From positions 9,440 through 73,439 of IMG/VR virus record IMGVR_UViG_3300044981_000350: DNA of 64,000 nucleotides. The stretch is one strand, 5' to 3'. Positions 34,191 through 58,916 of this stretch are shown here, one piece after another (within the stretch, counting starts at the first letter, position 1; each line of letters starts with the position of its first letter). Below the pieces are notes generated by a model, which had not been told where the DNA came from, made no database searches, and was given only the letters and a program-made list of their open reading frames with translations. This DNA is from a virus. Made by a program: the position numbers and the translations under genes.

Positions 34191-34403
34191 ATGCGCCGTC
34201 GTGCTCGTCGAAACCCCACCCTTCCCACCTGGGCCCTCGTCCTCGGGGGAGCCGCCGTCGTCGGCGCCGTGGGTTACGCCATCTACACCAAGCAGCAAGC
34301 CACGACGCAGATCGCTGGCGCTGCCAACGCACTCGCCCCCGCGTCCACCACGACCACGTCGTCTACGACCACGACGACGCCGGCCGCCACTTCGTCGTCG
34401 TAA
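34191..34403 (+). CDS. small NP-leader membrane protein
   Basis: AGGAG RBS; MRRRARRNP + TM + Thr/Ser tail. Confidence 0.75.
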   Translation: MRRRARRNPTLPTWALVLGGAAVVGAVGYAIYTKQQATTQIAGAANALAPASTTTTSSTTTTTPAATSSS

Positions 34404-34412
34404 ACCCCGCCG

Positions 34413-35380: not shown

Positions 35381-35390
35381 GGATCCCCCG

Positions 35391-36068
35391 ATGCCCATTC
35401 CCTACACCCAACCGGGTTACTCGTACAGCCCCGTCGCAGCCGTTTCGCTCGGCCAAGTGGGGGCTACGGGATCGCACGGGGCGAGCGGGCCGACAGGCCC
35501 CGCGGGGGCCACTGGAGCCACCGGACCGACGGGCACTACCGGCGGAGCGGGAGCGACGGGAGCTACCGGGAGCGGAGCTACGGGAGCCACTGGAGCCGCC
35601 GGCGCGACAGGCCCCGGTGGTGGAGCCACGGGAGCTACCGGCGCAGGTGGTGCGGCCGGCGCTACGGGCGCCACCGGAGCGGCCAATACCGGCCATCATG
35701 CCTACAGCCAAAACGCGTCGGCGGTGAGTGCCTCTACGACGCCGACGTTCACGAGCGGGTCCTACACCTCGACTTCGGGGACGATCCTCATCATCGCTAC
35801 CATGACGGCTACGGGGCTTGGCGCGACGTTGGCGGCAAACGACGCCGTTGTCTTCAACCTCCTCCAAGACGGATCGATCATCGGAACTTCCCCGAGCATG
35901 AGCGTTGGCGCTGCGGGCCCCGGCCCGGTCGACGCGTCGGGCGCCCTCTCGATGATCCTCGCCGCCTCCGGAGCCCACACCTACGCGATCCAAGCGACGG
36001 TTTTGACCGGGAGCCACACCGCCACCGTTCAAATCGGCCAGGCCGCCATTTCCATCACCGACCTCTGA
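35391..36068 (+). CDS. collagen-like fibre/spike protein
   Basis: [10 protein letters not shown]-terminus, GAT/GPT triplets, C-terminal beta domain. Confidence 0.8.
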
Positions 36069-36092
36069 TTTTTTCCCTCCGAGAGAACCGCC

Positions 36093-36698
36093 ATGCCCAT
36101 TCCCTACACTCAGCCCGGTATTGATTACAGCGTCGCCGCGGTGGTCGCCGTAGGCGGCGGTGGAATGACCCGCGGTGCCACGGGCGCCACGGGGCCTTCC
36201 GGCACCATCGGGGCCACGGGCGCCACCGGAGCCGGAATCATCGGTGCGACAGGCGCCACCGGACCTACCGGCGTCGGCGCTACCGGCGCTACGGGAGCCA
36301 ACGGCTCCGGCATCGTTTCGACCACCACCACCGCTTCGGATGTCGTTCTAACGACGAGCCCCGCGGCTATCGTCACGAGCTCCGCGGTGTCGGTCACGAG
36401 CGGCCAAAAGGTGTTGGTCCTATTCTCGGCCAACGTCGCCAACACCGGCGAGGTGGTCACGAGCGGGGAAACACTCGTGAGTTTCGCGGCGCAGTTCGAT
36501 ACCACGACCGTTGACTCTTTCCAACAGTTGTTGGTGAACGCCACCGACAACGGAAATGCGACCGTGAGCTGGTCCTACGAGGTCACGGGCCTTTCGACGG
36601 GAAGCCACACGTTCCGGGCGCTCGGGTCGGTCGACGCCACTACGTGCACGCCCGAGGTCATCGCGGCTCGCATCACCACTGTTCTTCTTCCGGGCTAA
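36093..36698 (+). CDS. collagen-like fibre/spike protein
   Basis: [10 protein letters not shown]-terminus, GAT triplets, C-terminal beta domain. Confidence 0.8.
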   Translation: MPIPYTQPGIDYSVAAVVAVGGGGMTRGATGATGPSGTIGATGATGAGIIGATGATGPTGVGATGATGANGSGIVSTTTTASDVVLTTSPAAIVTSSAVSVTSGQKVLVLFSANVANTGEVVTSGETLVSFAAQFDTTTVDSFQQLLVNATDNGNATVSWSYEVTGLSTGSHTFRALGSVDATTCTPEVIAARITTVLLPG

Positions 36699-36701
36699 CC
36701 T

Positions 36702-37346
36702 ATGAGCGTCGGCCAGATCCTCAACCGCGGCTCACGGGTTGCCGTTCAACCGGGGATCCCCGCTGGCGCTACAGGCCCGAGCGGAGCCACGGGGCCGACC
36801 GGCGCCACGGGAAGCACGGGGCCCACTGGCTCCCCCGGAGCTACGGGTGCTACCGGGGCCACGGGTGTCGGAGCCACGGGCGCTACGGGGCCGGGTGGCG
36901 CGGGCACCGCCGGGGCTACCGGGGCTACCGGGGCCACGGGAGCTACGGGAACGGGAACAGCCGGCGCGACTGGCGCCACCGGACCGACCAGCGCCGGGGG
37001 GCCGGCCGTAGTCACCGCCTCTACACCAGAGGACACCAACCCCCACACGTTGACGACGCGCGCCATCACCTCCAATACGGAGCTCGTGGTCGAGGTTGTT
37101 TTTCTCGCGCGTGACCCCACCGACGGCAATGACGAGGGCGGCCGTATCGCCGGTACCTTCAAGAATACGGCGGGGACCGCAGTGCAAGAGGGGACGACGA
37201 CGAAGGTGTGGCAGCAGGCGAACGCCGGGGGCGTCGTTTGCACCTTCGGCGTGACCGGCGGGAGCTACGAGATCATCGGGACCGGCAACGGTGATGGCAC
37301 CACCGACTGGACTCTCTACATCTACGAGTACCCAAGCGAACTCTAA
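36702..37346 (+). CDS. collagen-like fibre/spike protein
   Basis: GAT/GPT triplets and a distinct C-terminal domain. Confidence 0.8.
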
Positions 37347-37933
37347 ACGATCCCGCCGTGGGAGACGGGGCCGGCCACCTCGTCGACGACATACCCCATC
37401 TCGTGAAGCCGCTCGAAGAACGCGTGGTCTTCCTTGAGCATGATCCGCTTGCCCGCCCATGGCAGGATCATGTGGTGGAAGAGCGCCACGCGGGAGCTTT
37501 CATCTTGGTAGTAGGTGAGGTCCGCGTAACGCCGGCACATGGCCTCGAGAACTCCCCTCGTGATCAAGGCGCACCCCAAGCCGGCGTGGGTGATCCGGCC
37601 GATTGAATCCCGCGTGACGGCCCACGGGTGGGGCGGCGTACGGGTCTTGTAGGGAATGACGACCACCGGCCGATCGGCGGCGAGCATCCGCGCGAACATG
37701 TCGGGGGTCAGATCGATATCGTCATCTCGGAAGAACAGCGCGTCACACGGACCCTTGAGGAAATCCGCTACGAGGTCGGCGCGGGCGCAGTCGATCCAGG
37801 GGCTGTCCTTGATGAGGCCCACCACTGAACCTTCGAGGCCAAGCCGTTGGGCGATACCCCGGGTTGTTCGATGGAGGTGCTCTTCACGTTCCTTCGACAT
37901 GCGGTGGGCCGGGGTCGCGAAGTAGACCTTCAT
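37343..37933 (-). CDS. GT-A (GT2-like) glycosyltransferase
   Basis: [40 protein letters not shown]. Confidence 0.75.
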
Positions 37934-38123
37934 TGGCTCTTGCCCTGGAGGCTCCAACGAATCAGGTCGCGGCCTTGTTTGACCTTCTCCGGATCCGGGG
38001 CCCTGGGCGCGAGGCGCGCCTTCAGTTCGTTGATCTCGCGCCGCTGGTCGCGGATGATCTCGAGGAGCTTTACGACCTGGGCCTCGGCGATGGCCCACCA
38101 GACATTCTGCGGATCTCTCATTG
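37930..38123 (-). CDS. small coiled-coil protein
   Basis: MRDPQNVWW...; 3' part of ORF 37930..38232, start approximate. Confidence 0.4.
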
Positions 38124-38351
38124 TCACTTCTCCGGCGGTTTTGTCCGATATGCAACCTCGGCGATGAGCACTGAACAAAACCATAATGAGAAGAGCGGCC
38201 CCCATACAACTGCAACGAGGACCGTTTTCCAAACGGGTTCGGCAGAGTAGCTCGCCGGCTTGCCGTCGCGTGGGGCGTCTGCGTAGTTAGACATCGTTTG
38301 AGTAAGGAACGTCGCGACGATGCCGGTTAGATAGCACCATAGGAAAGTCAT
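38124..38351 (-). CDS. small two-TM membrane protein
   Basis: Hydrophobic ORF in the leftward glycosylation string. Confidence 0.5.
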   Translation of the reverse strand: MTFLWCYLTGIVATFLTQTMSNYADAPRDGKPASYSAEPVWKTVLVAVVWGPLFSLWFCSVLIAEVAYRTKPPEK

Positions 38352-39537: not shown

Positions 39538-40134
39538 TCAACCTCCTCCGAGAATCCACGCCCGCCCAAAGCACCCATTGACCCCGTCGAACTGTTTTAC
39601 GGCGCCCTTCCGGCCGGCCCACTCCTCGAGTTTCTCCGCGCTCAACTCGTGCGGATGCCCTTCGTGGGCCGGGATTCCGATCCACTCAAAGATGCGCAAC
39701 TCACGGGCAAGGGCCCGCGCGTTCGCGATCACCTTCGCCGGATCCTCAGTGTGCTGGAGGCAGTTGTACACGAGGGCCACGTCGAATATGAACGGCTGCC
39801 CGTTGAACTTCACTTTCGCGTAGGCCTCCCCTGGCTCCTGCTCGACCTCGATCAACGCATTGCCATAGCGTGCTCTAACCCACGCTGGGTATTGCCCCGG
39901 GTCGATCACCATCGACGGCCCGCGGTTCTCGAACTTGAGTAGCACACTCACCGGCCCGCCCCCGATGTCGACGAAGCTCCGGCCTCCGCCATCGTACGCG
40001 ATGCCGCCCGCGTGCCACACTTTCTTATATTGGAAACCCATCTCGTCGAGGTAGACGTACTGTTTGGTCTCTTCCCCGGAAGTATTGGCGCAGTTGCCCC
40101 AAAAACGAGACTCGAGATCGTCGTGGTCGCTCAT
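39538..40134 (-). CDS. class I SAM-dependent methyltransferase
   Basis: FVDIGGGP, VIDP, FDVALVYNCLQHTEDP. Confidence 0.8.
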   Translation of the reverse strand: MSDHDDLESRFWGNCANTSGEETKQYVYLDEMGFQYKKVWHAGGIAYDGGGRSFVDIGGGPVSVLLKFENRGPSMVIDPGQYPAWVRARYGNALIEVEQEPGEAYAKVKFNGQPFIFDVALVYNCLQHTEDPAKVIANARALARELRIFEWIGIPAHEGHPHELSAEKLEEWAGRKGAVKQFDGVNGCFGRAWILGGG

Positions 40135-45423: not shown

Positions 45424-46482
45424 TCAAACCGAAGGTTTAGTAGGCCAGATCCGCAGCTTCGCCCGCGCGGCCGCATCCTTCTTGTGCCCCCGTCGGTCAT
45501 AGCGCACCGTCGTATCTGGGCTCGCGTGGCTCATGAGGCTCTGCACTGTCGCGAGGTCGGTGCCGGCGTCGAGGGCCCGCGTCGCGAACGTGCGGCGACA
45601 ATCGTGGGGGGTGAACCGTTTGATCCCGATCTCTTCGGAGATCGTTTCGCAGAGGTACTCCAACGCACGGAAGTTGAGGGCCGCGCTCTTTGCCCGTACG
45701 CTACCGTCCGGCTGCACCCTCACGAGCAAAGCAGCCGTCGGCGCGTCGAGCTCCGCGCGTACGGGGAGCCACGCATCGAGGCTCGGTTTCACGTCGGGGC
45801 CCACGGCAAGGATCGTCTCCCGGTTCCCCTTCCGCAGTAGCCGAAGCTCACTCGCCGATGGGTCGTACCCCTTCAACGTGAGTCGGCTCGCCTCCGTCGC
45901 GCGAAGGCCGGCGCCGATGAGAAGCGCAAAGGTTGCCTCGAGGAACGCCCCGTAAGCGCTTGCCGGCCAATCAATCGCCGAAGGCCCGTGCGCTTCGCAG
46001 TAGGCGAAGAGTTTCCCGATCTCCTCGTCGGAGAGGTCACGACCCGCCGGGAGGCGCGTACCGTGAATCGGCTCAAGGTTGAGGGCGTTCCCGAGGTCGT
46101 TCCCCGACATGAGGCCGAGGCGGTTTGCTTGCCTAAGCACCCCACGGAGCGCGCAGAGGGTTACCCGCACCGTGTCGAGGCTGTAGTTCGCCCTCAGAAG
46201 GGCCGCGCGGATGGCGCTCGTCTCGGCGTACGTCATCCGATGCCACGGCACGGCGGGGGCGTCGCGCCCTAATAGGCGCCCGATGCGCGCCAAACCCTCC
46301 CGCATCGTCTGCGCAGCGCGCTCGGAGTCGCGAGAGGCAAGGTAGCTTTCGTACGCGCCGACGCGCGCAAGCTTACTGTTGACCGTCGTAACGGCCGTTT
46401 GGGGGCCTAATGTACGGTCGGGCGCATCGAGGGCGGCGCCGACGAGGGCCAACGGCGCCGCGGGGGGCTCGGAGGCGCTCAT
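45424..46482 (-). CDS. tyrosine recombinase/integrase (XerC-like)
   Basis: AGLRATE, RKGNR, FTPHDCRRTF, LMSHASPDTTVRYDRR. Confidence 0.9.
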   Translation of the reverse strand: MSASEPPAAPLALVGAALDAPDRTLGPQTAVTTVNSKLARVGAYESYLASRDSERAAQTMREGLARIGRLLGRDAPAVPWHRMTYAETSAIRAALLRANYSLDTVRVTLCALRGVLRQANRLGLMSGNDLGNALNLEPIHGTRLPAGRDLSDEEIGKLFAYCEAHGPSAIDWPASAYGAFLEATFALLIGAGLRATEASRLTLKGYDPSASELRLLRKGNRETILAVGPDVKPSLDAWLPVRAELDAPTAALLVRVQPDGSVRAKSAALNFRALEYLCETISEEIGIKRFTPHDCRRTFATRALDAGTDLATVQSLMSHASPDTTVRYDRRGHKKDAAARAKLRIWPTKPSV

Positions 46483-47127
46483 CGGTACCCCATGCGCCGC
46501 CACCACCCTTCGCGCCAACCGGTCCAACCCCGCGGGCGCCAACCGTCATCGCCATCTTGGCGCACGGGCATTTCATAGGTGCCGGCCGGGGCATGCCACG
46601 GCGGACCGACGGGCGTAGGCGCTTCCACGTTGAGGTGGATCGGGAAGTGCCCCGCGACCGGGGTACCATCGGTCATCCACATTCGGCCGTTGCCAGCGAC
46701 CTGCAAGCGCTTGTAGCCGCTCACTTTGCAGCCCTCCGTGCGCACGTCGGGCACGTTGGGGGCCCGCTTTCAGCGAGGTCGCAGAGGCTTTCCAGCGGGA
46801 TGCGCCCGCAAAGCACCCCGATCTCGTTGCCCCCGCAGTCGACGGCGACGGCGTGGGAGAGCATCGGGGCCCCGTCGAGGCGTCCACGCCCGCGGTAGGC
46901 CCCCGCCAGGACGTTGCGAACACCGACAGACGAAACGAGACCTATCCCCTTGATATTATTCATGTTTTCGCCTATTCCGCTACCACTAGATGACGCTAAT
47001 ATCTCTTAGCCCGACTTAGCTTGTGGCCCGCGGGTGGCCTTGGCAAGGCCCGGCGGGCCACCGGGAGGCCCCCCTAGAACGGCCCGGGGAAGGCGTTTGA
47101 CGATACGGGGCGGGCCTGGGCCGGGGG

Positions 47128-47568
47128 TCACGTTCCGGGGTGGGCCTTGGGCGCGAGCGGGCAGGGCCCTCGGTGCTTGATGAACTTGGCCTTGCCGAAC
47201 CCCCCTCCGAGGGCCTTTAGGAGGCACCTTTCGCAGGCTTTTCGATCGCGGCACTCCACTAGGGCAGCCGTAAGGCGTTCTTGCTGCGCGCGAGACCGTT
47301 CCGCAGCGTAGTCTCGGCGGAATTCTTCAAGATCGGCACGCCGTTTCTCTTCGGCCTTGCGCTCTTGCTCCGCCTTGAGGCCCGCCTCGGCCCGATCACG
47401 CGGGTAATCGAGCTCACCCCGTTCGTTGACACGCGCAGTGCAAGCGGGGTTCGGGCATCCGAGCTTGCCCGCGATAACCGCGGCCCAACAGAAGGGGCAG
47501 TTGTAAGAACCGTCGGGGTAGGTCTTGTCGGGCTCGCGTTCGCGGCCGAGGCAATCGCGGATGATCAT
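47128..47568 (-). CDS. Zn-finger/coiled-coil hypothetical protein
   Basis: CPFC, CPNPAC, CERC motifs. Confidence 0.6.
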   Translation of the reverse strand: MIIRDCLGREREPDKTYPDGSYNCPFCWAAVIAGKLGCPNPACTARVNERGELDYPRDRAEAGLKAEQERKAEEKRRADLEEFRRDYAAERSRAQQERLTAALVECRDRKACERCLLKALGGGFGKAKFIKHRGPCPLAPKAHPGT

Positions 47569-47819
47569 GATCGAGGCTCATGCCGCACGGCGCGGTGTTG
47601 GGCGAGGCTTTTATGCAAGCGCCTCAAGTTGAGGATCGAAAGGTGCTCGTCGTTCATGTAGAACCTTTCTTCAGCGTCTTCGAGATTGTAGGCCCACGTG
47701 CACCACGTTTCCTCACCAAACCCCGGATCGGATCGATCGGTGTACGTGCCCACGTAACGGTAAAGGGGGCCGTACTTACCAACCTTCGTAACGAATGCGC
47801 GTTGCTTACTCATCTTCAT
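47565..47819 (-). CDS. hypothetical protein
   Basis: AAGGGAG RBS; WAYNLEDAEERF. Confidence 0.6.
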   Translation of the reverse strand: MKMSKQRAFVTKVGKYGPLYRYVGTYTDRSDPGFGEETWCTWAYNLEDAEERFYMNDEHLSILNLRRLHKSLAQHRAVRHEPRS

Positions 47820-48111
47820 CTCTCCCTTGTGTATATAAGACGGCCGAACCGGCCCTTTCATTCAGCCCTAATTGCATCTCGAAAGCGTCTCATCGGATGG
47901 TACCCAAAAACCAAGCCTCGACCCCCTGGGTTGAAACCAACCCACCCGGCGCCGGCCCTGGGTCAAACAAGACCCATGCCAAGGGGCTCAGGCTGGCTCG
48001 GGCCGGCCGGGGCGTCTCATAAGGGTCTCGCAAAAAAAAGAGGGGAGGGGGCTGAATGTTTTGACCGGTCCGACCGTCTTACTAGGTACAAGGAACGAAG
48101 GAGAGACGACG

Positions 48112-48441
48112 ATGAGCACGATGCGTTACAGCGGCGAGATTCGGATCCGAATCACCTACATCGACGCGCCCCAGGGCGGCACTTGCGGTTACTACCGCTG
48201 CTTTCTCCGTGCCGTCGGTTTTCACCAAGGCGAAGGCCGGACGATTCAAGTCGGGGCCCCCGCGCACCTGACGAACGCGGTCGATTCGCCCGGGGCATTC
48301 GACGATGCAGCCCGTGCGGCCATCGCCTTCGCACAAGATGAAAACCCGGGGTGGGATGACCTCGCGGCCCACAACGAAGACGGCTACCACGTCGCGCGGA
48401 GCGCCAACGCCTTCCGCGGTCTCACCGCAAAAACGGCTTGA
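48112..48441 (+). CDS. hypothetical protein
   Basis: AAGGAG RBS; AVDSPGAFDDAARAAIAF. Confidence 0.65.
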   Translation: MSTMRYSGEIRIRITYIDAPQGGTCGYYRCFLRAVGFHQGEGRTIQVGAPAHLTNAVDSPGAFDDAARAAIAFAQDENPGWDDLAAHNEDGYHVARSANAFRGLTAKTA

Positions 48442-48585
48442 ATGAAACGGCCCGCTGGGCCATCTGACAGAATCAACCCTACCCCACGGAGGCACCCACC
48501 ATGAAACCCGGCCCGTCGTAATGGCGGGCCCTGCGACAACCCAAAAGATGCGGCGAGGTCCGGTTCAGCCGGGGGATACCTCGCC

Positions 48586-48660
48586 CGTCGCAGCCGGCTC
48601 CCGATAGGGTCCGGCGGCCTCTCCCCCTTCGTCAGGATCGATCGGGAGCCGACTGCGACG
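48586..48660. repeat. 20-bp inverted repeat (1 mismatch) with 35-nt loop
   Basis: cgtcgcagccggctcccgat (48586-48605) / atcgggagccgactgcgacg (48641-48660). Confidence 0.85.
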
Positions 48661-48697
48661 CAAGAGCAACGATTCACCGAGTAAAAAAGGAACGACC

Positions 48698-49018
48698 ATG
48701 ACTCAACCGACCAGCATCAAGATTGACAACGTGGAATACATCCGGGCCGATTCGGTCCAACAGAAACCGAGCGGTAACCGCGCCGTGGTCGTCGTCGACC
48801 GCGGGTGGGTTTTCGCAGGCGACATCGAACGGGCCGACGGTCGCATCACCCTCACCCGCGCCGTGTGGGTCTTTCGATGGGAATCCGTCGGTTTCGACGG
48901 CGTACTCCGAGACCCCAAGTCGACCAAGGTCCAGATCCGGAAGTTGGAGGCGCCGGTGGACCTCCCGGAGGCGAGCGAGATTTTCTGCGTTCCGGTCGCT
49001 GCCGATTGGGGGCTCTGA
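48698..49018 (+). CDS. small beta-rich phage protein
   Basis: AAGGA RBS; VVVVDRGWVFAG...TLTRA..VFRW. Confidence 0.75.
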   Translation: MTQPTSIKIDNVEYIRADSVQQKPSGNRAVVVVDRGWVFAGDIERADGRITLTRAVWVFRWESVGFDGVLRDPKSTKVQIRKLEAPVDLPEASEIFCVPVAADWGL

Positions 49019-49299
49019 TGGCTTCGGTGGTACGGCCGGTCGGCTACGGCAACGGCTACGGCTACGGCTACGGCAACGGCTACGGCGACGGCAACGGCTA
49101 CGGCGACGGCAACGGCAACGGCTACGGCGACGGCGACGGCAACGGCGACGGCAACGGCAACGGCTACGGCAACGGCTACGGCAACGGCTACGGCAACGGC
49201 AACGGCTACGGCTACGGCAACGGCAACGGCTACGGCTACGGCAACGGCGATGGCAACGGTACGGTACGATGTACCCGCCCCGATCGCCGGAGACCGTAA
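49018..49299 (+). CDS. Gly-Tyr/Asn/Asp dipeptide-repeat protein
   Basis: TGATG-coupled; (GY/GN/GD)n. Confidence 0.65.
   Translation: MASVVRPVGYGNGYGYGYGNGYGDGNGYGDGNGNGYGDGDGNGDGNGNGYGNGYGNGYGNGNGYGYGNGNGYGYGNGDGNGTVRCTRPDRRRP
49042..49260 (+). repeat. 6-bp tandem repeat GGC(T/A/G)AC, about 36 units
   Basis: Directly visible. Confidence 0.95.
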
Positions 49300-50436
49300 G
49301 GGAAGGTTTCGATCCTTCGAACCGGGGGCCGCCTCGGTTCGAGCGAACGACTCGAAAAAACAAGGGGAAACGACCGTGGATTCAATCAAGCGACAATTCG
49401 AAGTGACAATCGTCCACCACGGCGCGCCGGCGCCGATCAAGCTGCCCGTTCTCCGCGACGAGAGTGAAGTAGCAGCACTCAAAGCGAGCTACGAAAACGT
49501 CATCGCCCGCGCGGTGGAAGTGCCTGGCGTCGACGCGGCAGTTGCCCCGGCCGAGACGGTTCCCGCGGGTTTCCGTCAGGCGCTGCGCGCACTCATTGCG
49601 TGCTACCGCAAGGCCGAGTCCGAAGGCAACACGCTCTTGTCGGCCCGCGCGCAGAATGCGGTGGCGGCGCTCTTGGGGCATCAACCGCAGTTGCGGGGTG
49701 ACAACGGCGAAGCGTTCGGGGAGCCACGGCGAATGGCGACGTTGGTAGGGATGCCCGGGGGCAAGCGATGACCTTCCCCAAAGCGCCTCCGCGCATCGCA
49801 CTCCCGCCCCTCCGCCCCCCGCCCTACTCGGGCGCCTTCCCCGATCGCATCACCATTCCGACGCCGACCGCGGCTTTCGAGCTCACGGTTCTCGCCCTCG
49901 GCGACGAGGATATCATCGCGGTCGACGACTCCGACGAGCGCATTACGTTGGTGCCCGAACGATGATCGCGCTCCGCCTCACCGATCTCGAGATCATGATC
50001 GCGCGCCGGCTTCTCCGATCCATCCGCCACCTGACTTCGATCCGGCCCTCGCGCGCGTGCATCCCGCCGCCCCGCCCCCCGCCGGCTTACTACTCGGCCG
50101 TCGTGATTCCGGCGAACATCCCCATGCGCGACATCGGATCCGCGCGCCAGGTACTCTCCAACGATGCTGCGAAGACCGCAGCGGACACTGTCAAGCCGGA
50201 GTCGGGCCGATGAGCCCGCGGAAACCGAGCCGGCCCCCGCCGCCCCCCGGTGAATTCATGGTGCGCATCATCACCGGCCCTGTCGACTTCCCCGAGGTCG
50301 TCGAGCGGCTCTGCGCCAACGAGCAAGATGGGTGGGGCGCGTTTTACGAACACTGCCGGAGCCGCGCCGATGTTCGACTGCTCCGCAACGGTGCGGTGGT
50401 CGCCCGCCGGTTCGCGGTTGTTGATCGGGTGCCTTC

Positions 50437-50853
50437 ATGAGCATCCCGATTCCCCCGGGCCCCTTCCCCAGTCGACCCAAGCGCACCTTCGAGATTCGCC
50501 TCGGTGATTCCGTCGGGGTAACACTCGGAAGCATCCAGGCCGACACCTACCTCCAAGCGGCGGGCTACGCCTCACGCCAACTCTTCGGAGGCTCCGGCAA
50601 TGTGATGCGCGCTACGGGTTGGGGGGACGCCCCAGGGACCTTCCTTGACACGGAGGTGGGGCGGCCCCCGGTGCTGTTCTTCATCGCCGAGCCCGGAGTG
50701 ACGGCGCAACACCCACTTGGTCACTTCCGAAACGCGGATGACGCTGGGCTCGGGCCTGCCCCTGCTCTCGTCGGCACCAACCCACATCACGTTACCGGCA
50801 CGCTCAAACACATACCGCAACCGAAACCCCAACCGAAACGCAAGCGCCGATGA
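50437..50853 (+). CDS. hypothetical protein (FEIR...TGWG domain)
   Basis: Paralogous to the C-terminal half of 51529..52074. Confidence 0.6.
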   Translation: MSIPIPPGPFPSRPKRTFEIRLGDSVGVTLGSIQADTYLQAAGYASRQLFGGSGNVMRATGWGDAPGTFLDTEVGRPPVLFFIAEPGVTAQHPLGHFRNADDAGLGPAPALVGTNPHHVTGTLKHIPQPKPQPKRKRR

Positions 50854-51052
50854 GTCCTCCCCATTCCCTTCCCGATTCCACCAGGTTGCTCGCTGCGGCC
50901 CTCGACAGCCTCGAAAACACGACCAGCTATTGCTCCGCCGGCAAGAGCGCGCACGGCCCGATCCTCGTCGAAGGCGCGGTGTGGTGCTACAAGTGCGGGG
51001 CGATTCGAATGCCGGGCGAGGAAACCTGGACCCAACCCAAGTCGGTGAAACG

Positions 51053-51526
51053 ATGAGCGCCTATAACGTCTACGCTGGCGAAGCCCAGCACGGCCCGCGC
51101 CGCTTCCGGCCTCGCGGCTCTCTGAAGTGCTACCACGAAGGGGCCCAAGAGAACCCTACGACCCGCCTCGGCGGGGGCGGTTACTCAGCGCGGATCTTCG
51201 TTGGCCTGAACGTCGGCCAGCGCAAGGCTTACAGCGTCGATGACGTCGTGAAGATCGTGTGGGGGGTGCGCAAGCGCCAGGGCCGCTCCGGGGATGCATC
51301 CATATTAGCCCAACGCGGTATCTACGAAGACCGCGGGGGCAAGCGCGTCGTCGAGCAGTCAGTGCAGATCATCATCATCGACTTTTCTGGCGCGACCAAG
51401 AAGGGGTTTATCGCCGAGATGATCGAGCTCGCCGAGGCGCTCCAGAAGCGCATGAAGCAAGAGACGGTCATCTTGGAGATCCAGAATAAAGGGAGAGTCG
51501 TCGATGTCTTCAGTATCGCGGAGTGA
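51053..51526 (+). CDS. putative SAM lyase (T3 SAMase/DUF3574-like fold) with NP-type leader
   Basis: GIYED....VVEQSVQI...LAEALQKRMKQETVIL matches the G.Y..E.[ST]..Q[DE].V pattern; leader RRFRPRG...AQENP. Confidence 0.55.
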   Translation: MSAYNVYAGEAQHGPRRFRPRGSLKCYHEGAQENPTTRLGGGGYSARIFVGLNVGQRKAYSVDDVVKIVWGVRKRQGRSGDASILAQRGIYEDRGGKRVVEQSVQIIIIDFSGATKKGFIAEMIELAEALQKRMKQETVILEIQNKGRVVDVFSIAE

Positions 51527-51528
51527 AC

Positions 51529-52074
51529 ATGCCTCGTAAGTATCATCCCACCGAGTACCGCGACTACTTCGGCCGCGAGATCAAGCCCTGCACAACATGT
51601 GGGGCCCCTTCGTCCTTCCACGGAGCGACGGAGTGCACCAACTGCCACGAGGTCGAGAGGCGCTTCGCGCAGTACATCGACGGGGGCCCGAGGGCGGTCA
51701 AATTCATCACGGATGCCCTCGCCGCGGCCGGGTGGGTCGGTAAAGCAAAGGCGGCACACCCCGCGACCGCGTGCGCGTTAGGCGCGGTGGATGTCGTCGA
51801 AGATGCCGCCCGAACGACGGCGGGGAAAAAAGTGAGCACCTTCGAGATCCGCGAGGTCGATTCCCTCGGGGTCCTTCTCAAGAGCGTCGAGGCCGACAAC
51901 GCCTTTCGCGCGATTGAGCTCGCGTTTCCCGGCAAGGAATTTCACCGGGAGACGGGGTGGGGCGGCGGAAGCGGTACGTGGAAAGTCAAAGGGAAAGCTG
52001 CGCATGTGTGGGTCGGCCCCGCGGTTGCGGCCCCGACGAAGCCGAAGGCCAAACCGAAAGCCAAGGTCAAGTGA
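51529..52074 (+). CDS. Zn-finger plus FEIR/TGWG two-domain protein
   Basis: CTTC..CTNCHEVE; TFEIREVDSLG...RETGWG. Confidence 0.6.
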   Translation: MPRKYHPTEYRDYFGREIKPCTTCGAPSSFHGATECTNCHEVERRFAQYIDGGPRAVKFITDALAAAGWVGKAKAAHPATACALGAVDVVEDAARTTAGKKVSTFEIREVDSLGVLLKSVEADNAFRAIELAFPGKEFHRETGWGGGSGTWKVKGKAAHVWVGPAVAAPTKPKAKPKAKVK

Positions 52075-52542
52075 GGTGGGTCCAAACACCAGCCGGCGAC
52101 AAGTGCCACGCGGTTCTCACCCGCCACAGCGGCAAGACGCTTTGCGGGTTGCCACTCGAGGGGGCCGTGATCGCGAAGGCTCCGGGGTTCGATAACCGGT
52201 GCGGTAACTGCGACGCTGAATGGCGCGAGCGCGGGCGGCACCAGAGAAAGAAGACGCGGCCGGTTTCACGAAAGGAAGAATACCGACCGCGGTTCACGTT
52301 CAAAGATTGGGAGAACCTGGCATGAAAAAAGCCATACTCAAAGTACCTCTCTCCGGACTCGACTTCCCGGTCGGTTACAGCTTCGATATTATCGACGAAA
52401 AGACCGACCCGATAACGCTCCGGACGACGGTAGGGGATCTTACAACGTCGTTTAGGGCCCTCTCTTTTTGCTTCGACATCGTCGATGACCACCCGATGAT
52501 TTGCCGCTGCGGTATCCACCGCGCTGATTGCGATTACCATCG

Positions 52543-52743
52543 ATGACCGTCTTAGCGCTGACCGTTTCGTGCGGCACCTGCGGCGAGCAGACGATGTCCG
52601 ACACGAAAAAGTGCGACAACTGTCGCGAGGTCGAAACGCGGCTCGCGCAATACCTCTTCGAAGGCGGCGCAACCGCGCGCACGTTCGTGTGGGCAGAGCT
52701 CGTCAAAGCCGAAGAGAAGGCCGAGGAAAGGGCCAACCGATGA
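52543..52743 (+). CDS. small Zn-finger protein
   Basis: CGTC..CDNCREVE.RLAQY; paralog of the 51529 N-terminus. Confidence 0.6.
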   Translation: MTVLALTVSCGTCGEQTMSDTKKCDNCREVETRLAQYLFEGGATARTFVWAELVKAEEKAEERANR

Positions 52744-54317
52744 TTGAGATCCGCCGTCTCGGCCCCAACGGTCTCTTGGGCATCCTCTCCACCAGCTTTT
52801 CGCCCGTGCTCCGCGACGAGTGCAAGCGCACACCGGGGATGGTGTGGAACCCCGAAACGGTGATCTGGGAGGGCTACACCGACGCCGTTGCGCTGGTGGC
52901 CGCCCGCGCGCGTGAGCGAGGTCTCATCATCAAAGATCCGGCGAAGTTCCCCCTCACCGCGACGGTTCTTCCCGTCGCCACGAAGGACCTCCGTGAGTAC
53001 CAGATCGAAGGGGTCAACTTCATCCTCAACAAGGCCCGCGAGGGGTGTCTCCTCGGTGACACGGTCGGGCTAGGCAAAACGGCCCAAGCCATTCGTGCCG
53101 CGCGCGCCATCAAGCAAAACACCCTCATCGTCTGCCCCTCGTTCGTGCGGGGCGTATGGGTCGACGAGTTGAAGAAGTGGTGGCCCGACGCGGACGCGCC
53201 CAACCTTCCTTCCGGGGTGAAAGTACCGGAGGGAAGCCTCGGTAACACCGGATGCGTCACGGTCATCCACTACGACATCCTCTATGCGTGGGTGCCCGAG
53301 CTTCTCAAGTGGGGCGTGAAGTTCCTAGTGTTGGATGAGGCCCAATACTGCCAAGGGTCCGCCTCTCGACGCACCAAGGCTTGCGCCGCGGTTGCCGCCC
53401 AAGCTTCATGGAGGGTTGGCCTCACCGGCACCCCGATGGCGAACCGCCCAGCCGACTTGTGGGCCGTCGTCGAGACGCTCTCCCCCGGCCGCTTCGGGAA
53501 GTTCTTTTCGTTCGGGCTGAGACATTGCAACGGCCGCAAAGAGCAAGTGACGCCGGAGAAGGCGGTGTGGAAATTCGACGGGGCGAGCCGCTTGGAGGAG
53601 CTCAATACCCGGTTGAAAAGCTTCATGCTCCGCCGGACCCGCGCCGATGTTGCCTTGCAGCTCCCGAGTCGCCAGCGCCAGATTCTGTCTCTCGAGGTGC
53701 CCCGGGCGAAATACACGCCCCAGATGATCGGATCCCACACCGCCCTCCGCAAGGCGCTCGAGGGCGCCAGCGACGCCAAGATCCCCGCCGTGATCGATCT
53801 CGTCGTCGGCCATCTCGAGGCCGGCCACAAGGTGGTCGTCGGAAGCCACCGGAAGGCGCTCGCGCATATGATCCACGATGGGGTGCGGCAGAAGATGCCG
53901 GTTCGATCGGAAGTGGTGACGGGCGAGATCCCGACGGCGAAGCGGCATGCGATCATCAAGAGTCAGCCCGAATTGATCTGTTGCACCTTCGATGCCACGC
54001 AGGTCGGGATCGATTTGAGCTTCGCCAGCGTCGGGGTCGTGGCCGAATTCGACTACCGGCCGAGTGTGTTGGCGCAGTGGGAGGGCCGATTCGGGCGGTT
54101 CGCCGGGCGTAATATTTTGATCCAGTATTGCAACGCCCGAGGGACCATCGACGACTTGATCCGGAAGGCGGTCATCACCAAGTTGGACACGCTCGAGAAC
54201 GCGGTGGGCAAGGCCGATGTCGCGATGAGGGCCGACCTCGAAGCCATCGACGGGGCGAGCGGGTTAGATCGGTTGAAGGCCCTCGCGGAGAGCCTCATGA
54301 GTGGGGACGACGAATGA
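52740..54317 (+). CDS. SNF2-family helicase
   Basis: LREYQ, DTVGLGKT, LIVCP, VLDEAQ, LTGTPMANRP, FMLRRT, GIDL, QWEGRFGR. Confidence 0.9.
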   Translation: MIEIRRLGPNGLLGILSTSFSPVLRDECKRTPGMVWNPETVIWEGYTDAVALVAARARERGLIIKDPAKFPLTATVLPVATKDLREYQIEGVNFILNKAREGCLLGDTVGLGKTAQAIRAARAIKQNTLIVCPSFVRGVWVDELKKWWPDADAPNLPSGVKVPEGSLGNTGCVTVIHYDILYAWVPELLKWGVKFLVLDEAQYCQGSASRRTKACAAVAAQASWRVGLTGTPMANRPADLWAVVETLSPGRFGKFFSFGLRHCNGRKEQVTPEKAVWKFDGASRLEELNTRLKSFMLRRTRADVALQLPSRQRQILSLEVPRAKYTPQMIGSHTALRKALEGASDAKIPAVIDLVVGHLEAGHKVVVGSHRKALAHMIHDGVRQKMPVRSEVVTGEIPTAKRHAIIKSQPELICCTFDATQVGIDLSFASVGVVAEFDYRPSVLAQWEGRFGRFAGRNILIQYCNARGTIDDLIRKAVITKLDTLENAVGKADVAMRADLEAIDGASGLDRLKALAESLMSGDDE

Positions 54318-54603
54318 AGGTGGTATGCGTCGACGCCGATGGGGAACCGGAACTCACCCTCGGGATGGTTTACCGCCTCGAGTCGTTCGTCGGCGACGGG
54401 AAGGCCCGGCTCGATCGCATCGACGCGCTGTTTGACCGCCGGCGGTTTCTCATCATCGATCTCGAACACGATGCGCGGTTCGTTTGCGGAATCGTCATCA
54501 CACTCCAAGTAGCGCGCACCCTCGGGCAATGGCCCGGTCAGGTGCGGCAGAAGAAGTGCAAATGTAGCATCCCACCTGGGGTGCTTTGCGAATACCACGG
54601 ACC

Positions 54604-55188
54604 ATGAAGAACCCTACCGACACGCTTGCTCGGATCATCACCATCGGCCTTTGGATCCTCGCCGGGATCCTTGGATCTTGCGCCCTCACCGCTTGCGGCG
54701 GAGGGGCCTTCGTTTATGACGCCCCTTCGCTTGATGCAGGCCCCATCGAAACCGAGGCGGATGGCGCCCCCGACGCGTTGGATGCCGGCCCCGATCGCGT
54801 CGTGGGACTACCCCCGCCCAAGCGCGACGCAGATACACCCGAGGTGGATGCGGGGTTACTAGGGGATGCAGCCCCAGAAGCAACCGCCGATGCGGCCACC
54901 GAGGCGTGCGCGCCGCCGCAGACCCAAGCCGAATGCATCCCCTCCGGCGCCACTTCGGGTATCTCCTACGCGATACCGGATTCCTACTGCGTGTGGCTCT
55001 ACGACCACGCGTTGAATCCACCCGCGACGCCGGTAGTGATGACGATGCCCGCGGCGTGCCGCTGCGACTACACTGAGGCGTGCCTGATGGGGGCTGGCAT
55101 GAGCATTTGCCCGGCCGGCTCGACGTACTACGCCGGGGGCATTTTCGAAACCGACGCAGGCGCAAGCCGGATTGTGTGCCAACAATGA
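54604..55188 (+). CDS. myxobacterial-type lipoprotein with DAG/DAA repeats and Cys-rich domain
   Basis: ALTACGG lipobox, repeated DAG/DAA. Confidence 0.7.
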   Translation: MKNPTDTLARIITIGLWILAGILGSCALTACGGGAFVYDAPSLDAGPIETEADGAPDALDAGPDRVVGLPPPKRDADTPEVDAGLLGDAAPEATADAATEACAPPQTQAECIPSGATSGISYAIPDSYCVWLYDHALNPPATPVVMTMPAACRCDYTEACLMGAGMSICPAGSTYYAGGIFETDAGASRIVCQQ

Positions 55189-55637
55189 TCGACGATAAAG
55201 CATTCACGGATCTCTTTGATGAGGCCCGTAAACTACCTCCGATGACAGCGCGCGAACGACAGATCCAAAGCCTCGACTTCGCGTACGGTAACCTCGCGTG
55301 CACAACGAATCACAAACCGACGCGCCAAGCGTTCGCGTTCCTCGCGAAAAGCCACGGTTGGACCGCCCCGCAGTTCACCGAATGGGCCGAGGATAAGGAG
55401 TGGTGGGTCTGATGAAACTACCCGCTCAATCGAACGCGAATCCTGAGCGGCCCCAATGGGAACCCTCCGAAGAGACCCTCGCGGTACGGCGGTTGGTCGA
55501 CGTGTGGGGACGCTCGTTCGCGCTCAAGTTCTTCCCGGGCGTCGCGGAACACGAGCTCGCGCGGTGCTACTACGGGATGCCGATCGAGCCGGGCGCGCTC
55601 GCGGGAATCAAAAAGGTGTTGAAGGAGCGGTTGGCCA

Positions 55638-56189
55638 ATGACTGAGCGAGAGCGCGGTTTTTACTGGGTGCGGATTCCCCAACGAACGCCTGTGGGGCCG
55701 ACGCACTCCGACGTCGTCGCTTTCACCCACGGAGATGGCCGGTGGTTTTTCGCAGGGCTCGACAAACCTCGGGGGGAGTTCGAAGCAATAGTGTTGGGGG
55801 GACCCCTCAAGTTCGAGCCCGGGCCGGCCCCCGCAGCGCCATTCGAACGACTTACGGCCGAACGTGACGATCTCATGTCGGCGATTAGCGTCATCGCGCG
55901 AGAGCGCGCAGAGCTGGCCGCCAATCTGACCGCGACCCAAGCACGTTGCACGGAACTCCTCGACGACTCGCGCGCGAAGGGCCGCGAGATCAAATACCTC
56001 AGAGACGAGATCAACAACCTTATCTCCGGGTGTTACGACCTGAGCGTGAAACTCGAGGCCGAACGAGCCGCCGCGCAGACCGCCCGAACCGAGGTACAGG
56101 CCCAAACGATCCGCCGCCTTCGCGCTATCGGCTATCGTGTCGTGAAACGTTGCGGCGCCTGCGTGAGCCTCGCGTTTGAGCGGCCATGA
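55638..56189 (+). CDS. coiled-coil hypothetical protein
   Basis: RERGFYWVR N-terminus and heptad-rich C-terminus. Confidence 0.55.
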   Translation: MTERERGFYWVRIPQRTPVGPTHSDVVAFTHGDGRWFFAGLDKPRGEFEAIVLGGPLKFEPGPAPAAPFERLTAERDDLMSAISVIARERAELAANLTATQARCTELLDDSRAKGREIKYLRDEINNLISGCYDLSVKLEAERAAAQTARTEVQAQTIRRLRAIGYRVVKRCGACVSLAFERP

Positions 56190-56492
56190 CACCCGACCAG
56201 CTTGCGCACTTCATCGCGCTCTTCGCGTGGCTCGTCGGTTGGCCGGCGCTCATCGCCTTCACCTTCGTGAGCACGCTTGTGTTAGTCTTTGGGGAAGGCC
56301 CTCCGCCGCACGACCCCCGCGATGACTTCCGCGACTGACACCGCCGACAACGCCGCTTCGGATGACACCGAGCCGACCGCCGTTGATTGGAAGCTCGCGA
56401 TCTCGAGTGGGCTCGCAGCGTGTGCGGTCGTCGGGCTCTTCATCTTGGCGATCAAGCACGCGGGAAGCGCTAGGAAAACTCGGTAAGCGGCC

Positions 56493-56521
56493 TTGACAGT
56501 GCCACTCGACCGCGGCAAACT
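56493..56521 (+). promoter_or_regulatory. sigma70-like promoter TTGACA-17-CAAACT
   Basis: Perfect -35, 17-nt spacer, 8 nt before ATG 56530. Confidence 0.6.
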
Positions 56522-56529
56522 CCCCAACG

Positions 56530-57840
56530 ATGGCGAAATCATTCACGGGGCTCGACTACACCAACGTACGCACGGGCGGCTGGGTGGAGCTCGAGGATCG
56601 CGCGCTCATCGAGGAATACAAGAAGGGCGGCACCCTCCCGGAGATTTCGATCGCGCTCACCAAACGGTTGAAACGACCCATTACCGCCAGCGCCATCAAA
56701 GATCGGGCCTACTATCTGCGGCTGCGGGGCGTGGAGATTCCGCAGTTACCCCGATCGCGCCCTTCGCTTGACAAGCTTGAGCCGGCAACCCCCCTCAACC
56801 CGCTCGAACGTCGCGCGGCCCTCGACAAGGCCGCCGTAGCCCGCAAAGAAATGGAGGGGCTTGTCGATCAAGTCAACGAGTTCAAAGCGCGCCAAGCGTT
56901 CCTCGATGCGGCCGCGGGGTTCAAGGCGCCTCCGGTGCTCCTTCCCCGCGAGAAAAAGAGCGGCATCCGCGAGCTCTGTCCGATCGTACTCGCGAGCGAT
57001 TGGCACGTCGAAGAGAACGTCGACCCGGAGAGCGTCGCGCGCCGGAACATCTACAGCCTCGAGATCGCCGAGGAGCGCATGGAGCGCTTTTGGCAGGGGA
57101 TCATGTGGAACATCGAGCATCACCGCGCGAGCGGTAAGGTTGCGATCCGCGACTTGGTACTCTGGCTCGGCGGGGACCTCATCACGGGGTACATCCACCC
57201 GGAGCTCGTCGAGATCGCGGAGTTGTCACCTACGGGTGCAATCCGATGGCTCATCTCACGGCTACGGAATGGGATCGCGACGCTCCTCGAGCGGTTGAAG
57301 CTCGATCGGTTGGTGATCCCCTGTAGCTACGGGAACCATGGTCGAACCACCGACAAGACGCGGATCGCCACCGGCGCCCACAACAGTTTCGAGTGGCTCA
57401 TGTACCACATGATCGCAAACGAATTCCGCGACGAAGAGCGGATCGTGTTCGAGATCACGGCGAGCGCGCACCAATACGTCGACGTTTTCGGGAGCATCGT
57501 TCACTTCCACCACGGTGACGAGGTCCGGTACAACGGTGGGATCGGCGGCCTCGGGATCCCGCTCCTCAAGGCGATCCCGAGCTGGGAGCTTGTGAAGCCG
57601 GCGGCCCTTCACTGCCTCGGGCACCACCATACGCTCCGCGACTTCGGCCGCGCGGTGGTCAACGGATCTTTGATCGGGTACACCCCCTACTCTCAAAGCA
57701 TCCGTTGCGAGTTCGAGCTCCCGCAGCAAGCGATGTTCTTCTGGGATCGCTCGCGGGGTAAGTGCATGTTCACACCCCTTTGGGTCTCCGACTTGGAGAA
57801 GGACAAGAAGAGGGGCATCGGGATCAACGCCGGCACATGA
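56530..57840 (+). CDS. calcineurin-like metallophosphoesterase with N-terminal HTH-like region
   Basis: SDWH, GGDLI.G, GNHGR, HHGD, LGHHH, VNGSLIG. Confidence 0.85.
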   Translation: MAKSFTGLDYTNVRTGGWVELEDRALIEEYKKGGTLPEISIALTKRLKRPITASAIKDRAYYLRLRGVEIPQLPRSRPSLDKLEPATPLNPLERRAALDKAAVARKEMEGLVDQVNEFKARQAFLDAAAGFKAPPVLLPREKKSGIRELCPIVLASDWHVEENVDPESVARRNIYSLEIAEERMERFWQGIMWNIEHHRASGKVAIRDLVLWLGGDLITGYIHPELVEIAELSPTGAIRWLISRLRNGIATLLERLKLDRLVIPCSYGNHGRTTDKTRIATGAHNSFEWLMYHMIANEFRDEERIVFEITASAHQYVDVFGSIVHFHHGDEVRYNGGIGGLGIPLLKAIPSWELVKPAALHCLGHHHTLRDFGRAVVNGSLIGYTPYSQSIRCEFELPQQAMFFWDRSRGKCMFTPLWVSDLEKDKKRGIGINAGT

Positions 57841-58075
57841 GCGCGATGGATTGTTGCCTCTTCTGCCTCCGATGCCGCGGCTCCATCACGAGCGAGTTCT
57901 GTACCTACGGCCTCGCGCATGAATTCCCGACGCCCCCACCGCCACCGCCTGTCAAAAAGCGCGATGCGAAACTCTGCGTCGTGTGTGGCCTACACCCGGG
58001 CAACCCCGCATCCCAAACAAATGGTTGCGCGCACCAGTATTTGACCGCCGCACCCCCTAAGGGGTAGGCTACACC

Positions 58076-58417
58076 GTGACCGACCAACCGGAAGCTGGGG
58101 CGGCAGAGCCGGAAAACGATCTCGATCGGCTGGAGCGCAAGGTCGACGCGATCTTGCACATGTGCATCACCAACCGAGATCTCTCGGCCAAGATCGCGTC
58201 GGTGGTCGAGGTGGAGCGCCGGTTGGTGGATCGGTTCGATGATCGGTTGGCGCGCGCCGAAGCGCTAGAAAAATCCCTCGGCTCTACGGTGATGAAACTT
58301 ACCCTTGCGCGGCTCCCGACCAGCATTGCCGCGGGGGCCATCGCGGGCCTCGTAGCGGCCGCAGCTGTCACCTACCTCCTCTTTGGTGGGTTCGGGGGCA
58401 TCGCCTCGGCTCATTGA
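58076..58417 (+). CDS. coiled-coil protein with C-terminal TM
   Basis: TTGACC-18-TAGGCT 5 nt upstream; heptads then hydrophobic tail. Confidence 0.6.
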   Translation: MTDQPEAGAAEPENDLDRLERKVDAILHMCITNRDLSAKIASVVEVERRLVDRFDDRLARAEALEKSLGSTVMKLTLARLPTSIAAGAIAGLVAAAAVTYLLFGGFGGIASAH

Positions 58418-58472
58418 GCCCCCGTGATATTCCCTTGCGTGCCCGGCGCCGCGGTTGCGCTAAGCTCTTCAT

Positions 58473-58916
58473 ATGCCGCAGCGTCTGAAGAACACCAACG
58501 CCCAAAAAGACACCGTCATCGGCGCTAGCGCGAGTGACACCGCCCTCGCCGACCAGCCCCTCACCGCCCAGGGCGGTCCGATGAGCATCACCGCGACGCC
58601 GACCGCGGTGCCGGGAGCCTCAATCAGCGCCCCGGCCCTTCCGGCCACCCGAAGCTACGTCATCACGTACTCGTGCGTGCTCGAAAACAGCGAGAGCGCA
58701 ACGACCGTGACGGCGCGGATCTTCGATGGCGTCGCGAGCGCCGGGATCGTGACGGAGCCCCAGGCGCTTGCCGGGACCGACACGCAGATCATCAGCTGGA
58801 CGGTCAAGGTGGCGGGCAACGGCTCCGCGCGCACCTTCGGTCTCTCGTTGGCGGACCCCGCGAGCACCGCGACGGTTCCGGCGGCGGGCTGCACCGGCGT
58901 CATCACACTCTGGTAA
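58473..58916 (+). CDS. beta-sandwich protein resembling the fibre tip domains
   Basis: Ala/Thr-rich strands like the C-termini of 35391 and 36093, without collagen. Confidence 0.55.
   Translation: MPQRLKNTNAQKDTVIGASASDTALADQPLTAQGGPMSITATPTAVPGASISAPALPATRSYVITYSCVLENSESATTVTARIFDGVASAGIVTEPQALAGTDTQIISWTVKVAGNGSARTFGLSLADPASTATVPAAGCTGVITLW

Follow-up and report, generated by a model that had tools for sequence, protein, structure and literature searches.

The gene at positions 51053 to 51526 of a 64,000-nucleotide stretch of virus DNA encodes a lyase of S-adenosylmethionine (SAM) that belongs to the type of Svi3-3. The stretch, here called the window, covers positions 9,440 to 73,439 of IMG/VR record IMGVR_UViG_3300044981_000350 and forms the final 64 kb of that record, which has 73,439 bases in all. 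We show that the catalytic core of the enzyme is preceded by a 36-residue N-terminal segment that is conserved throughout the lyase family and matched nothing but lyases in our searches. A first-pass annotation, made from the DNA letters alone, had taken this segment for an Asn-Pro (NP) tag that loads the enzyme into the virus particle, and the virus does encode small proteins in which an arginine run is followed by NP and a membrane helix. We consider it probable that the protein is an anti-restriction lyase made inside the infected cell, and that its N-terminal arm is a native, family-wide feature distinct from the tags of this virus.

The enzyme itself is ordinary, being one further phage SAM lyase. 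Presumed active, it would convert SAM to 5'-methylthioadenosine and homoserine lactone, and is expected to be a trimer with its active sites at the subunit interfaces. By draining SAM in the infected cell, it would blunt SAM-dependent defences such as type I/III restriction-modification and BREX. The modest new point is the arm, which is conserved, dispensable for catalysis and was lost from the characterised enzyme in cloning.

The protein is a SAM lyase of the Svi3-3 type

When the lyase protein was compared by phmmer with the 177,635 sequences of the Protein Data Bank (PDB), the only clear match was 6zm9_A, which is Svi3-3 (E 8.2e-35), with residues 37-156 of the query aligned to residues 4-124 of the chain. 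AlphaFold2 models had a mean predicted local distance difference test score (pLDDT) of 87.3 with an alignment of 32 rows and of 91.1 with one of 149 rows. A Foldseek search with the first of these models, which is the comparison with SAM lyase structures that the first-pass annotation had proposed, returned 6zm9 (E 1.6e-15, target template modelling (TM) score 0.85) and 6znb (E 1.0e-14, target TM 0.89) as top matches at 53-55% identity. The model has the ferredoxin-like (PII-like) β-α-β fold. Lower in the Foldseek results were SAM-AMP lyases and another SAM lyase at ∼20% identity, followed by PII and CutA proteins.

The accessible text of Guo et al. (2021, eLife, PMC7877911) gives Ser50, Gly56, Tyr58, Glu69, Ser71, Ile77, Gln104 and Glu105 as ligand-binding or catalytic residues of Svi3-3. 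In the phmmer alignment, all of them are kept, as S83, G89, Y91, E101, S103, I109, Q136 and E137, respectively. Among the aligned family sequences, E101 is kept in 240/240, Q136 in 237/237 and G89 in 240/241. That the protein resembles SAM lyases had first been noticed by eye from a pattern of G-I-Y-E, E-Q-S and Q-E-T-V. The pattern is present as G89-I-Y91-E, E101-Q-S103 and Q136-E137-T-V, and is the active site, since its residues map onto the SAM-binding and catalytic residues of Svi3-3. Sequence, fold and active-site residues strongly support the early reading of the protein as a SAM lyase, and no greater certainty about the assignment is to be had from sequence and fold.

The SAM-AMP lyases in the Foldseek results raise the question of another substrate. 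If the enzyme cleaved SAM-AMP, a signal of type III CRISPR, rather than SAM, it would be an anti-CRISPR protein. The structures found are those of the Clostridium botulinum SAM-AMP lyase (9gab and 9gad, E 3e-5 to 6e-5), and their ∼20% identity to our protein compares with 55% for Svi3-3, whose SAM-contacting residues are all kept. Between the SAM-AMP lyase and the SAM lyase only Glu71 and Gln108 are structurally conserved, and the AMP group would collide with one of the loops of the SAM lyase (PMC12255297). On these grounds, SAM-AMP as the true substrate is highly improbable.

General family models do not capture the protein. Neither Pfam (TAFII28, E 0.034, under its cut-off) nor PHROGs (phrog_3543, E 0.029) gave a significant match to it. 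A tblastn search of 50,697 phage records returned no match, and a pattern scan of the contigs of GTDB genomes found no relative, so that we do not name a host.

The N-terminal extension is a native feature of the lyase family

The N-terminal segment reads R16-R-F-R-P-R-G22 ... G30-A-Q-E-N34-P35. That such an extra segment precedes the core, as the first-pass annotation had noticed, is borne out by the gene structure. The ATG of the lyase overlaps the TGA of the upstream 68-residue open reading frame (ORF) as ATGA at 51053-51056, which fixes the start. Codons 1 and 37 have no in-frame ATG, GTG or TTG between them, so a later true start cannot account for the segment. The GC content of third codon positions is 0.78 in codons 1-36 as against 0.82 in the core.

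Relatives were collected in two ways. When 5.8 billion proteins were searched, 122 candidates came up, of which 74 were homologues (90% clustering), most of them 157-173 residues long with a query coverage of 96-100%. From 1.84 billion cluster representatives, a profile search retrieved 534 matches at E ≤ 1e-3, of which 425 had E ≤ 1e-10; most matches begin in the first 25 positions of the profile. Of the 534 representatives, 150 were used further. Alignment A1 holds 32 of the 74 homologues and alignment A2 the first 149 of 182 sequences that passed a length and coverage filter. Conservation in aligned columns was counted in 242 unique sequences, comprising 219 proteins and the ORFs from fetched loci. 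For counts by regular expression, 50 of the 219 sequences were dropped for not matching the core pattern, and the 165 with at least 25 upstream residues were counted.

In A1, residues G9, E10, F18, P20 and G22 of the extension are almost invariant, and in the deeper A2, F18, P20 and G22 still are. Over the whole collection, F18 is kept in 218/232 sequences and P20 and G22 in 220/232 each, which is the level of the active-site residues, while G9-E10 is only partly conserved (G in 162/211, E in 95/211). The motif [FWY]xPxG is present in 209 of the 232 aligned sequences, and a motif like F-x-P-x-G was found in 152/165 by regular expression. Asn-Pro at the columns of N34-P35 is found in 140/239 sequences. 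By regular expression, NP lies within 22 residues ahead of the core in 110/165, with a commonest offset of 11 residues before an S-A-R motif (77 cases), and roughly a third of the family lacks it. From G22 to the core, the linker is 16-41 residues long, with a single case of 81. The extension has a mean pairwise identity of 0.29 and the core one of 0.43.

The extension was found on lyases only. Two profiles of it, compared with the six-frame translation of the window, matched the lyase ORF itself (E 2.8e-20 and 1.1e-15), with next best values of 0.17 and 0.024, so it is not common to other proteins of the window. Among all ORFs of 42 related loci, the profiles again matched lyase ORFs only (best non-lyase E 0.0075). 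A word-based search with residues 1-40 gave one candidate among longer proteins, which did not score, and only three close lyases among proteins of near length; as shared five-residue words are required, such searches are weak evidence. The same residues gave no usable match by features in the ESM Atlas, where the structure rows all had TM below 0.5. No description of the extension was found in the literature on Svi3-3 and phage SAM lyases, supplements not covered. Judged from these sequence comparisons, the 36-residue segment is a native, lyase-specific and family-wide front end, not a virus-specific NP leader.

Why has this front end escaped the studied enzyme? The deposited Svi3-3 construct of 162 residues (P0058 in our set) has a His tag and vector residues in place of the extension, and according to the accessible text of PMC7877911, its authors do not know where native Svi3-3 starts and ends. 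The nearest natural relatives of Svi3-3, at 65-75% identity (P0085, P0080, P0060, P0054, L015/L016, L018, L019 and L025), all have sequence ahead of the core, and every one of them that is not a fragment has the full extension of 45-60 residues with G-E...R-F-R-P-x-G. The closest (P0085, 75%), itself a fragment, has just 16 residues ahead of the core and shows only the KRNP junction. Since its nearest natural relatives all carry upstream sequence, native Svi3-3 very probably had the extension too. N-truncated constructs of Svi3-3 are active, and the His-tagged form of 162 residues is active at a level only about twofold below that of the truncated form (PMC7877911, accessible text). As Svi3-3 works without it, the extension is unnecessary for catalysis. 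The only structurally studied member of this branch came from a random DNA fragment, and its natural relatives reveal a native front end of 36-60 residues. F, P and G of this piece match the active site in conservation, although catalysis can dispense with the piece as a whole.

The front end is not uniform. In P0156, the hairpin that the extension is predicted to form is replaced by a bare arginine run and NP, with only 'MPHRPMPRRLRNP' ahead of the core; P0073 begins with 'MPNP', and P0145 and P0171 begin at the core itself. Some of these four, and some of the longer members, may be miscalled starts or fragments. Several members of the family are fused to other modules (P0163, P0165, P0201, P0204, P0082 and P0216). 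In P0163 and P0165, further C-terminal modules follow the lyase behind KKNP or RMNP, and in P0082 and P0216 an N-terminal domain of unknown family, of 240 and 190 residues, respectively, stands ahead of the hairpin.

The extension differs from the Asn-Pro tags of the virus

That the virion could carry the finished lyase into the cell along with the DNA, the Arg-rich segment ending in ENP acting as the loading tag, deserves consideration because the lyase does have an Arg-rich stretch and ENP, and because the window does hold proteins with an arginine run and NP. A few family members, moreover, carry merely 'MPRRLRNP' (P0156) or 'MPNP' (P0073) ahead of the core. We scanned the window for a run of arginine or lysine (three or more of nine residues) that directly adjoins an NP close to the N-terminus, with a membrane helix within ∼25 residues, which are loose criteria of our own that may miss variant tags. 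The scan gave six matches, two of them doubtful (Table 1), and the lyase was not among them. The NP of the tags is often followed by x-x-x-W, as in NPTGAQW, NPGVDVW, NPGIPLW and NPTLPTW. Distant lyases frequently show NP-x-x-W at the junction, and the likeness to the NP-x-x-x-W of the tags may be a coincidence.

The two kinds of segment differ in form. In the tags, the arginine run abuts NP and a helix follows. In the lyase, RRFRPR belongs to the conserved hairpin and is separated from N34 by 12 residues, and what follows NP at residues 34-35 is core strand β1 instead of a membrane helix. The absence of a transmembrane segment from the lyase, as remarked in the first-pass annotation, is confirmed by a maximum Kyte-Doolittle mean over 19 residues of 1.1. 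Separately, an overall enrichment of NP in the predicted proteins of the window was considered and rejected, with 31 observed and 27.9 expected; the ratios in five records were 0.96-1.36. The lack of enrichment also counts against a loading tag.

We then compared five records for the capsid candidate of this virus (29983-31359), taken as the marker of its group, for the tags and for the lyase junction. This virus (G000, 73 kb) has the capsid candidate, the six matches in the window and the junction ENP. G001 (78 kb, terminal repeats) has the capsid candidate at 66% identity, three tag matches in the 60 kb fetched and ENP. G002 (64 kb) has it at 47% identity and four tag matches, yet its lyase junction is ARREPLSRL without NP. 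The proteins found in G001 and G002 are of the same kind, with the arginine run, NP and membrane helix. G003 (147 kb) has no capsid match, no tag and a lyase without NP that keeps C-F-R-P-A-G, and G005 (97 kb) has a marginal capsid match (E 3.5e-4), no tag and the junction SNP. A further record, G004 (150 kb), has no capsid match and, in the fetched locus, a lyase identical to that of G003; it was not part of the whole-record tag scan. Across the five records, a small sample crudely scanned, the NP of the lyase does not go along with the tags, and every record retains the hairpin.

Whether homologues outside the virus group lack the leader had been proposed as a check by the first-pass annotation. 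The opposite was found: G003 and G005, which count as outside merely for having no match to the capsid candidate (marginal in G005) and no tag hit, both keep the extension. The leader is conserved, but across the lyase family. Loading by an NP tag is unsupported, because the segment is family-wide, found on lyases only and unlike the tags in form, and because its NP does not follow them across the five records. The position of the gene, among replication-type genes and ∼14 kb from the presumed structural block, also speaks against loading.

Phage T4 provides a precedent for the general idea, as its IPI* is an anti-restriction protein that is delivered with the virion and carries a capsid-targeting sequence. 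A capsid-targeting peptide of the T4 style ending at Glu10 was considered for the lyase and rejected, as E10 is kept in only 95/211 sequences and no T4-type protease was recognised. In support of virion association more generally, the accessible part of a proteomic study of cyanophage S-CREM2 lists a virion-associated 'SAM hydrolase' (PMC10665884). Packaging of the lyase is possible in principle; nothing here points to it, and particle loading through the segment seems quite unlikely to us. The case tempers the idea of an Asn-Pro tag, in that NP beside basic residues belongs here to a family-specific module.

Predicted structure and possible roles of the arm

In the AlphaFold2 model from the 149-row alignment, the extension is predicted to form a short β-hairpin with strands at residues 11-13 and 16-18, which carries F-x-P-x-G and would be followed by the variable linker and then, in ∼60% of members, by Asn-Pro ahead of the first core strand. 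The pLDDT per 10-residue block of the extension is 77/94/79/78, and the value of 94 for residues 11-20 suggests that the extension is ordered rather than floppy. We also performed a mean-field coupling analysis on 235 sequences (effective number, Meff, 213), which recovered sensible core contacts. The couplings L39-S154 and R38-D151 rank 7 and 11, in agreement with a contact between the core N-terminus and β9 of the neighbouring subunit described in the accessible text of PMC7877911. Couplings between the extension and the core are weaker, with best ranks of 17 and 32, and 6/10 of the top ones reach helix α2 (residues 119-133). A complex prediction with three cores (37-157) and the extension (1-36) as partner scored 0.00, which speaks neither for nor against binding. 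These results are suggestive only of an arm that may rest on the outer helix α2 and the subunit interface, where it could modulate or stabilise the trimer or bind a partner.

The fixed position of NP invites a different thought. The extension could be a pro-peptide that restrains a toxic enzyme until a cut between Asn34 and Pro35, autocatalytic or by a viral or host protease, sets it free. Self-cleavage at Asn-Pro is established chemistry, for example in reovirus mu1 at Asn42-Pro43. In 140/239 sequences, NP keeps a constant distance from the first core strand, which it precedes, and core-only forms occur naturally (P0145 and P0171). Restraint would be useful, because expression of Svi3-3 is highly toxic (PMC7877911, accessible text) and the virus, as discussed below, is probably temperate. 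Set against this, about 40% of the family have ED, EP, TPN or other variants in place of NP and still keep the hairpin. That the His-tagged 162-residue Svi3-3 is active, about twofold less so than the truncated form, can also be held against a pro-peptide; as this construct is without the native hairpin, it has little bearing on inhibition. We regard restraint and release of this kind as decidedly doubtful.

It is also conceivable that the hairpin with F-x-P-x-G acts as a tethered peptide and attaches to an outside partner such as the host SAM synthetase MetK, so that SAM would be destroyed and its resynthesis blocked at once. Near-invariant F, P and G with a variable linker of 16-41 residues are typical of a short linear binding motif, and the SAMase of phage T3 is reported to inactivate MetK through heteropolymers (PMC8406200; 10.1101/2023.02.27.530186, accessible parts). 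The T3 enzyme, however, belongs to a different, barely similar branch, MetK is a candidate partner only, and the pLDDT of 94 in the monomer together with the couplings to α2 fits a contact within the subunit or the trimer at least as well. Binding of an outside partner is unlikely on balance.

These ideas can be combined. Native lyases of the Svi3-3 type might be two-part proteins, in which the hairpin restrains the enzyme or addresses it to the particle or to SAM synthetase, and a cut at Asn-Pro frees the active trimer. We consider this improbable. If true, it would mean that a counter-defence enzyme occurs as a pro-enzyme or as cargo across a large uncharacterised group of soil viruses that is without recognisable tailed-phage structural genes.

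Genomic context

The TGA of the lyase gene overlaps the GTG of the next ORF (GTGA), and the overlaps with both neighbours place the gene in a tightly coupled gene string. The genes of this string are small and co-directional, and it leads on to an SNF2 helicase (52569-54317, +; SNF2-rel_dom, E 4.4e-31) and an exonuclease (56530-57840). From this setting, together with the integrase described below, we infer that the lyase is made in the infected cell. The closest relatives, L001 and L007, keep the synteny of lyase and SNF2 helicase; in more distant loci the lyase lies among unrelated genes. A scan of 46000-58500 for promoters and terminators gave counts no higher than in shuffled sequences.

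The gene string starts ∼4.5 kb from a tyrosine integrase (45424-46542, minus strand). The presence of the integrase makes the virus probably temperate, and a toxic lyase would then have to stay silent in the lysogen. The virus was said in the first-pass annotation to encode two SAM-dependent methyltransferases. One of them is found, a Dam N6-adenine methyltransferase at 14634-15140 (+; PF05869, E 2.6e-22); a second one was not confirmed among the ORFs examined, those at 37343-38215 and 39538-40134 having no Pfam match.

Table 1. Coordinates of the lyase gene, its parts, its immediate neighbours and the Asn-Pro tag matches in the window
Feature	Position	Strand	Basis or remark
Complete SAM lyase gene, Svi3-3 type	51053..51526	+	ORF, 157 codons + TGA
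N-terminal extension, residues 1-36	51053..51160	+	alignments; not in crystallised Svi3-3 construct; family-conserved
F18-R-P20-R-G22 motif ([FWY]-x-P-x-G)	51104..51118	+	most conserved motif of the extension
N34-P35 at junction of extension and catalytic core	51152..51157	+	aligned-column and regular-expression counts
Catalytic core, residues 37-157, ferredoxin-like, PII-like fold	51161..51523	+	aligned to 6zm9_A residues 4-124
Upstream 68-residue ORF	50850..51056	+	stop overlaps lyase ATG (translational coupling)
Downstream 183-residue ORF	51523..52074	+	GTG start overlaps lyase stop; same co-directional string
Small proteins with Arg run abutting NP, then membrane helix	24185-24640, 24532-24837, 33761-34153, 34164-34400	+	tag scan
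Looser or doubtful tag matches	25309-25920; internal site in 28420-29922		tag scan

Virion genes of known families were sought in several ways. The large window ORFs tested (18080-37346 region) gave no recognisable terminase, portal or HK97-capsid family, and the tested ORFs of the window and of its relatives gave no head protease, terminase or HK97 capsid. The Pfam models Terminase_6N and HK97 capsid (Phage_capsid) matched nothing in G001-G005 (64-150 kb), PHROGs on the ten largest ORFs each of G003 and G005 gave replication proteins only, and Pfam on ten large ORFs near distant lyases gave no virion hallmark.

Other genes of the window encode a VapE-type primase-helicase, a Dda-like helicase, Sak4 and a RadC/JAB protein. 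The family-A polymerase at 8857-11463 (+) has an N-terminal domain of the uracil-DNA-glycosylase (UDG) superfamily (PF03167, E 7.8e-18) ahead of its 3'-5' exonuclease and polymerase domains. Ten small ORFs neighbouring the lyase gave nothing significant with PHROGs, and the upstream 68-residue ORF has no Pfam or PHROG family. The downstream ORF is a mosaic. Its N-terminal part, with Cys-x2-Cys...Cys-x2-Cys-x-E-V-E, matches a 71-residue ORF at 52528-52743 (E 4e-9), and its C-terminal part matches a 138-residue ORF at 50437-50853 (E 1e-6); none of these three ORFs, all on the plus strand, has a Pfam or PHROG family. Just upstream of the lyase string, a long simple repeat at 48.9-49.3 kb (48723-49406 region) reads (Gly-Asn-Gly-Tyr/Asp)n in one frame and runs of Arg/Cys/Ser or Ala/Val in others.

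Discussion

A lyase made in the infected cell, with a family-wide arm resting on its own trimer, has observations that weigh against it. The placement of the arm on α2 relies on weak coupling scores and pLDDT only, in a model whose predicted TM score (pTM) is just 0.72, and the linker between G22 and the core, with its wide range of lengths, fits a tethered partner-binding peptide equally. NP holds a single fixed position in ∼60% of a very diverse family, and a few members either have a bare arginine run and NP instead of the whole hairpin (P0156) or start at M-P-N-P (P0073); a module seam or a cut site would look like this. The time of expression is deduced from the gene neighbours alone. Finally, the same virus encodes Dam, which needs SAM, alongside an enzyme that destroys it.

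Among known systems, Svi3-3 (PDB: 6ZM9, 6ZMG, 6ZNB) is the closest to the lyase: the two are 55% identical in the core of 120 residues, the predicted fold is shared and the SAM-binding residues are kept. It differs in that the studied form is a library fragment with vector-derived ends, which is without the native extension of 36-60 residues. The T3 SAMase (gene 0.3 product) shares the reaction and the presumed use, which is the depletion of SAM against type I restriction and BREX as described in the accessible sources, but its similarity to this lyase is barely detectable and it also binds MetK. The SAM-AMP lyases of CorA-associated type III CRISPR (9GAB, 9GAD; PMC12255297) belong to the same family of trimeric PII-like folds and have the catalytic Glu and Gln in common with it, yet they have ∼20% identity to our protein, another ligand pocket and another substrate.

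The likeness to T4 IPI* and to the 'SAM hydrolase' of S-CREM2 (PMC10665884, accessible part) lies in the proposed concept of a counter-defence enzyme that is loaded through an N-terminal signal; their phages are T4-like tailed phages with a known head protease, of which none was recognised in the tested ORFs of this virus and its relatives. Closest to hand are the tags of the virus itself, which resemble the lyase in having Asn-Pro after basic residues at the junction between an N-terminal piece and the remaining protein. In the tags, the arginine run and the NP that it abuts lie among the first 10-20 residues, ahead of a membrane helix, whereas in the lyase the junction leads into a soluble β-strand.

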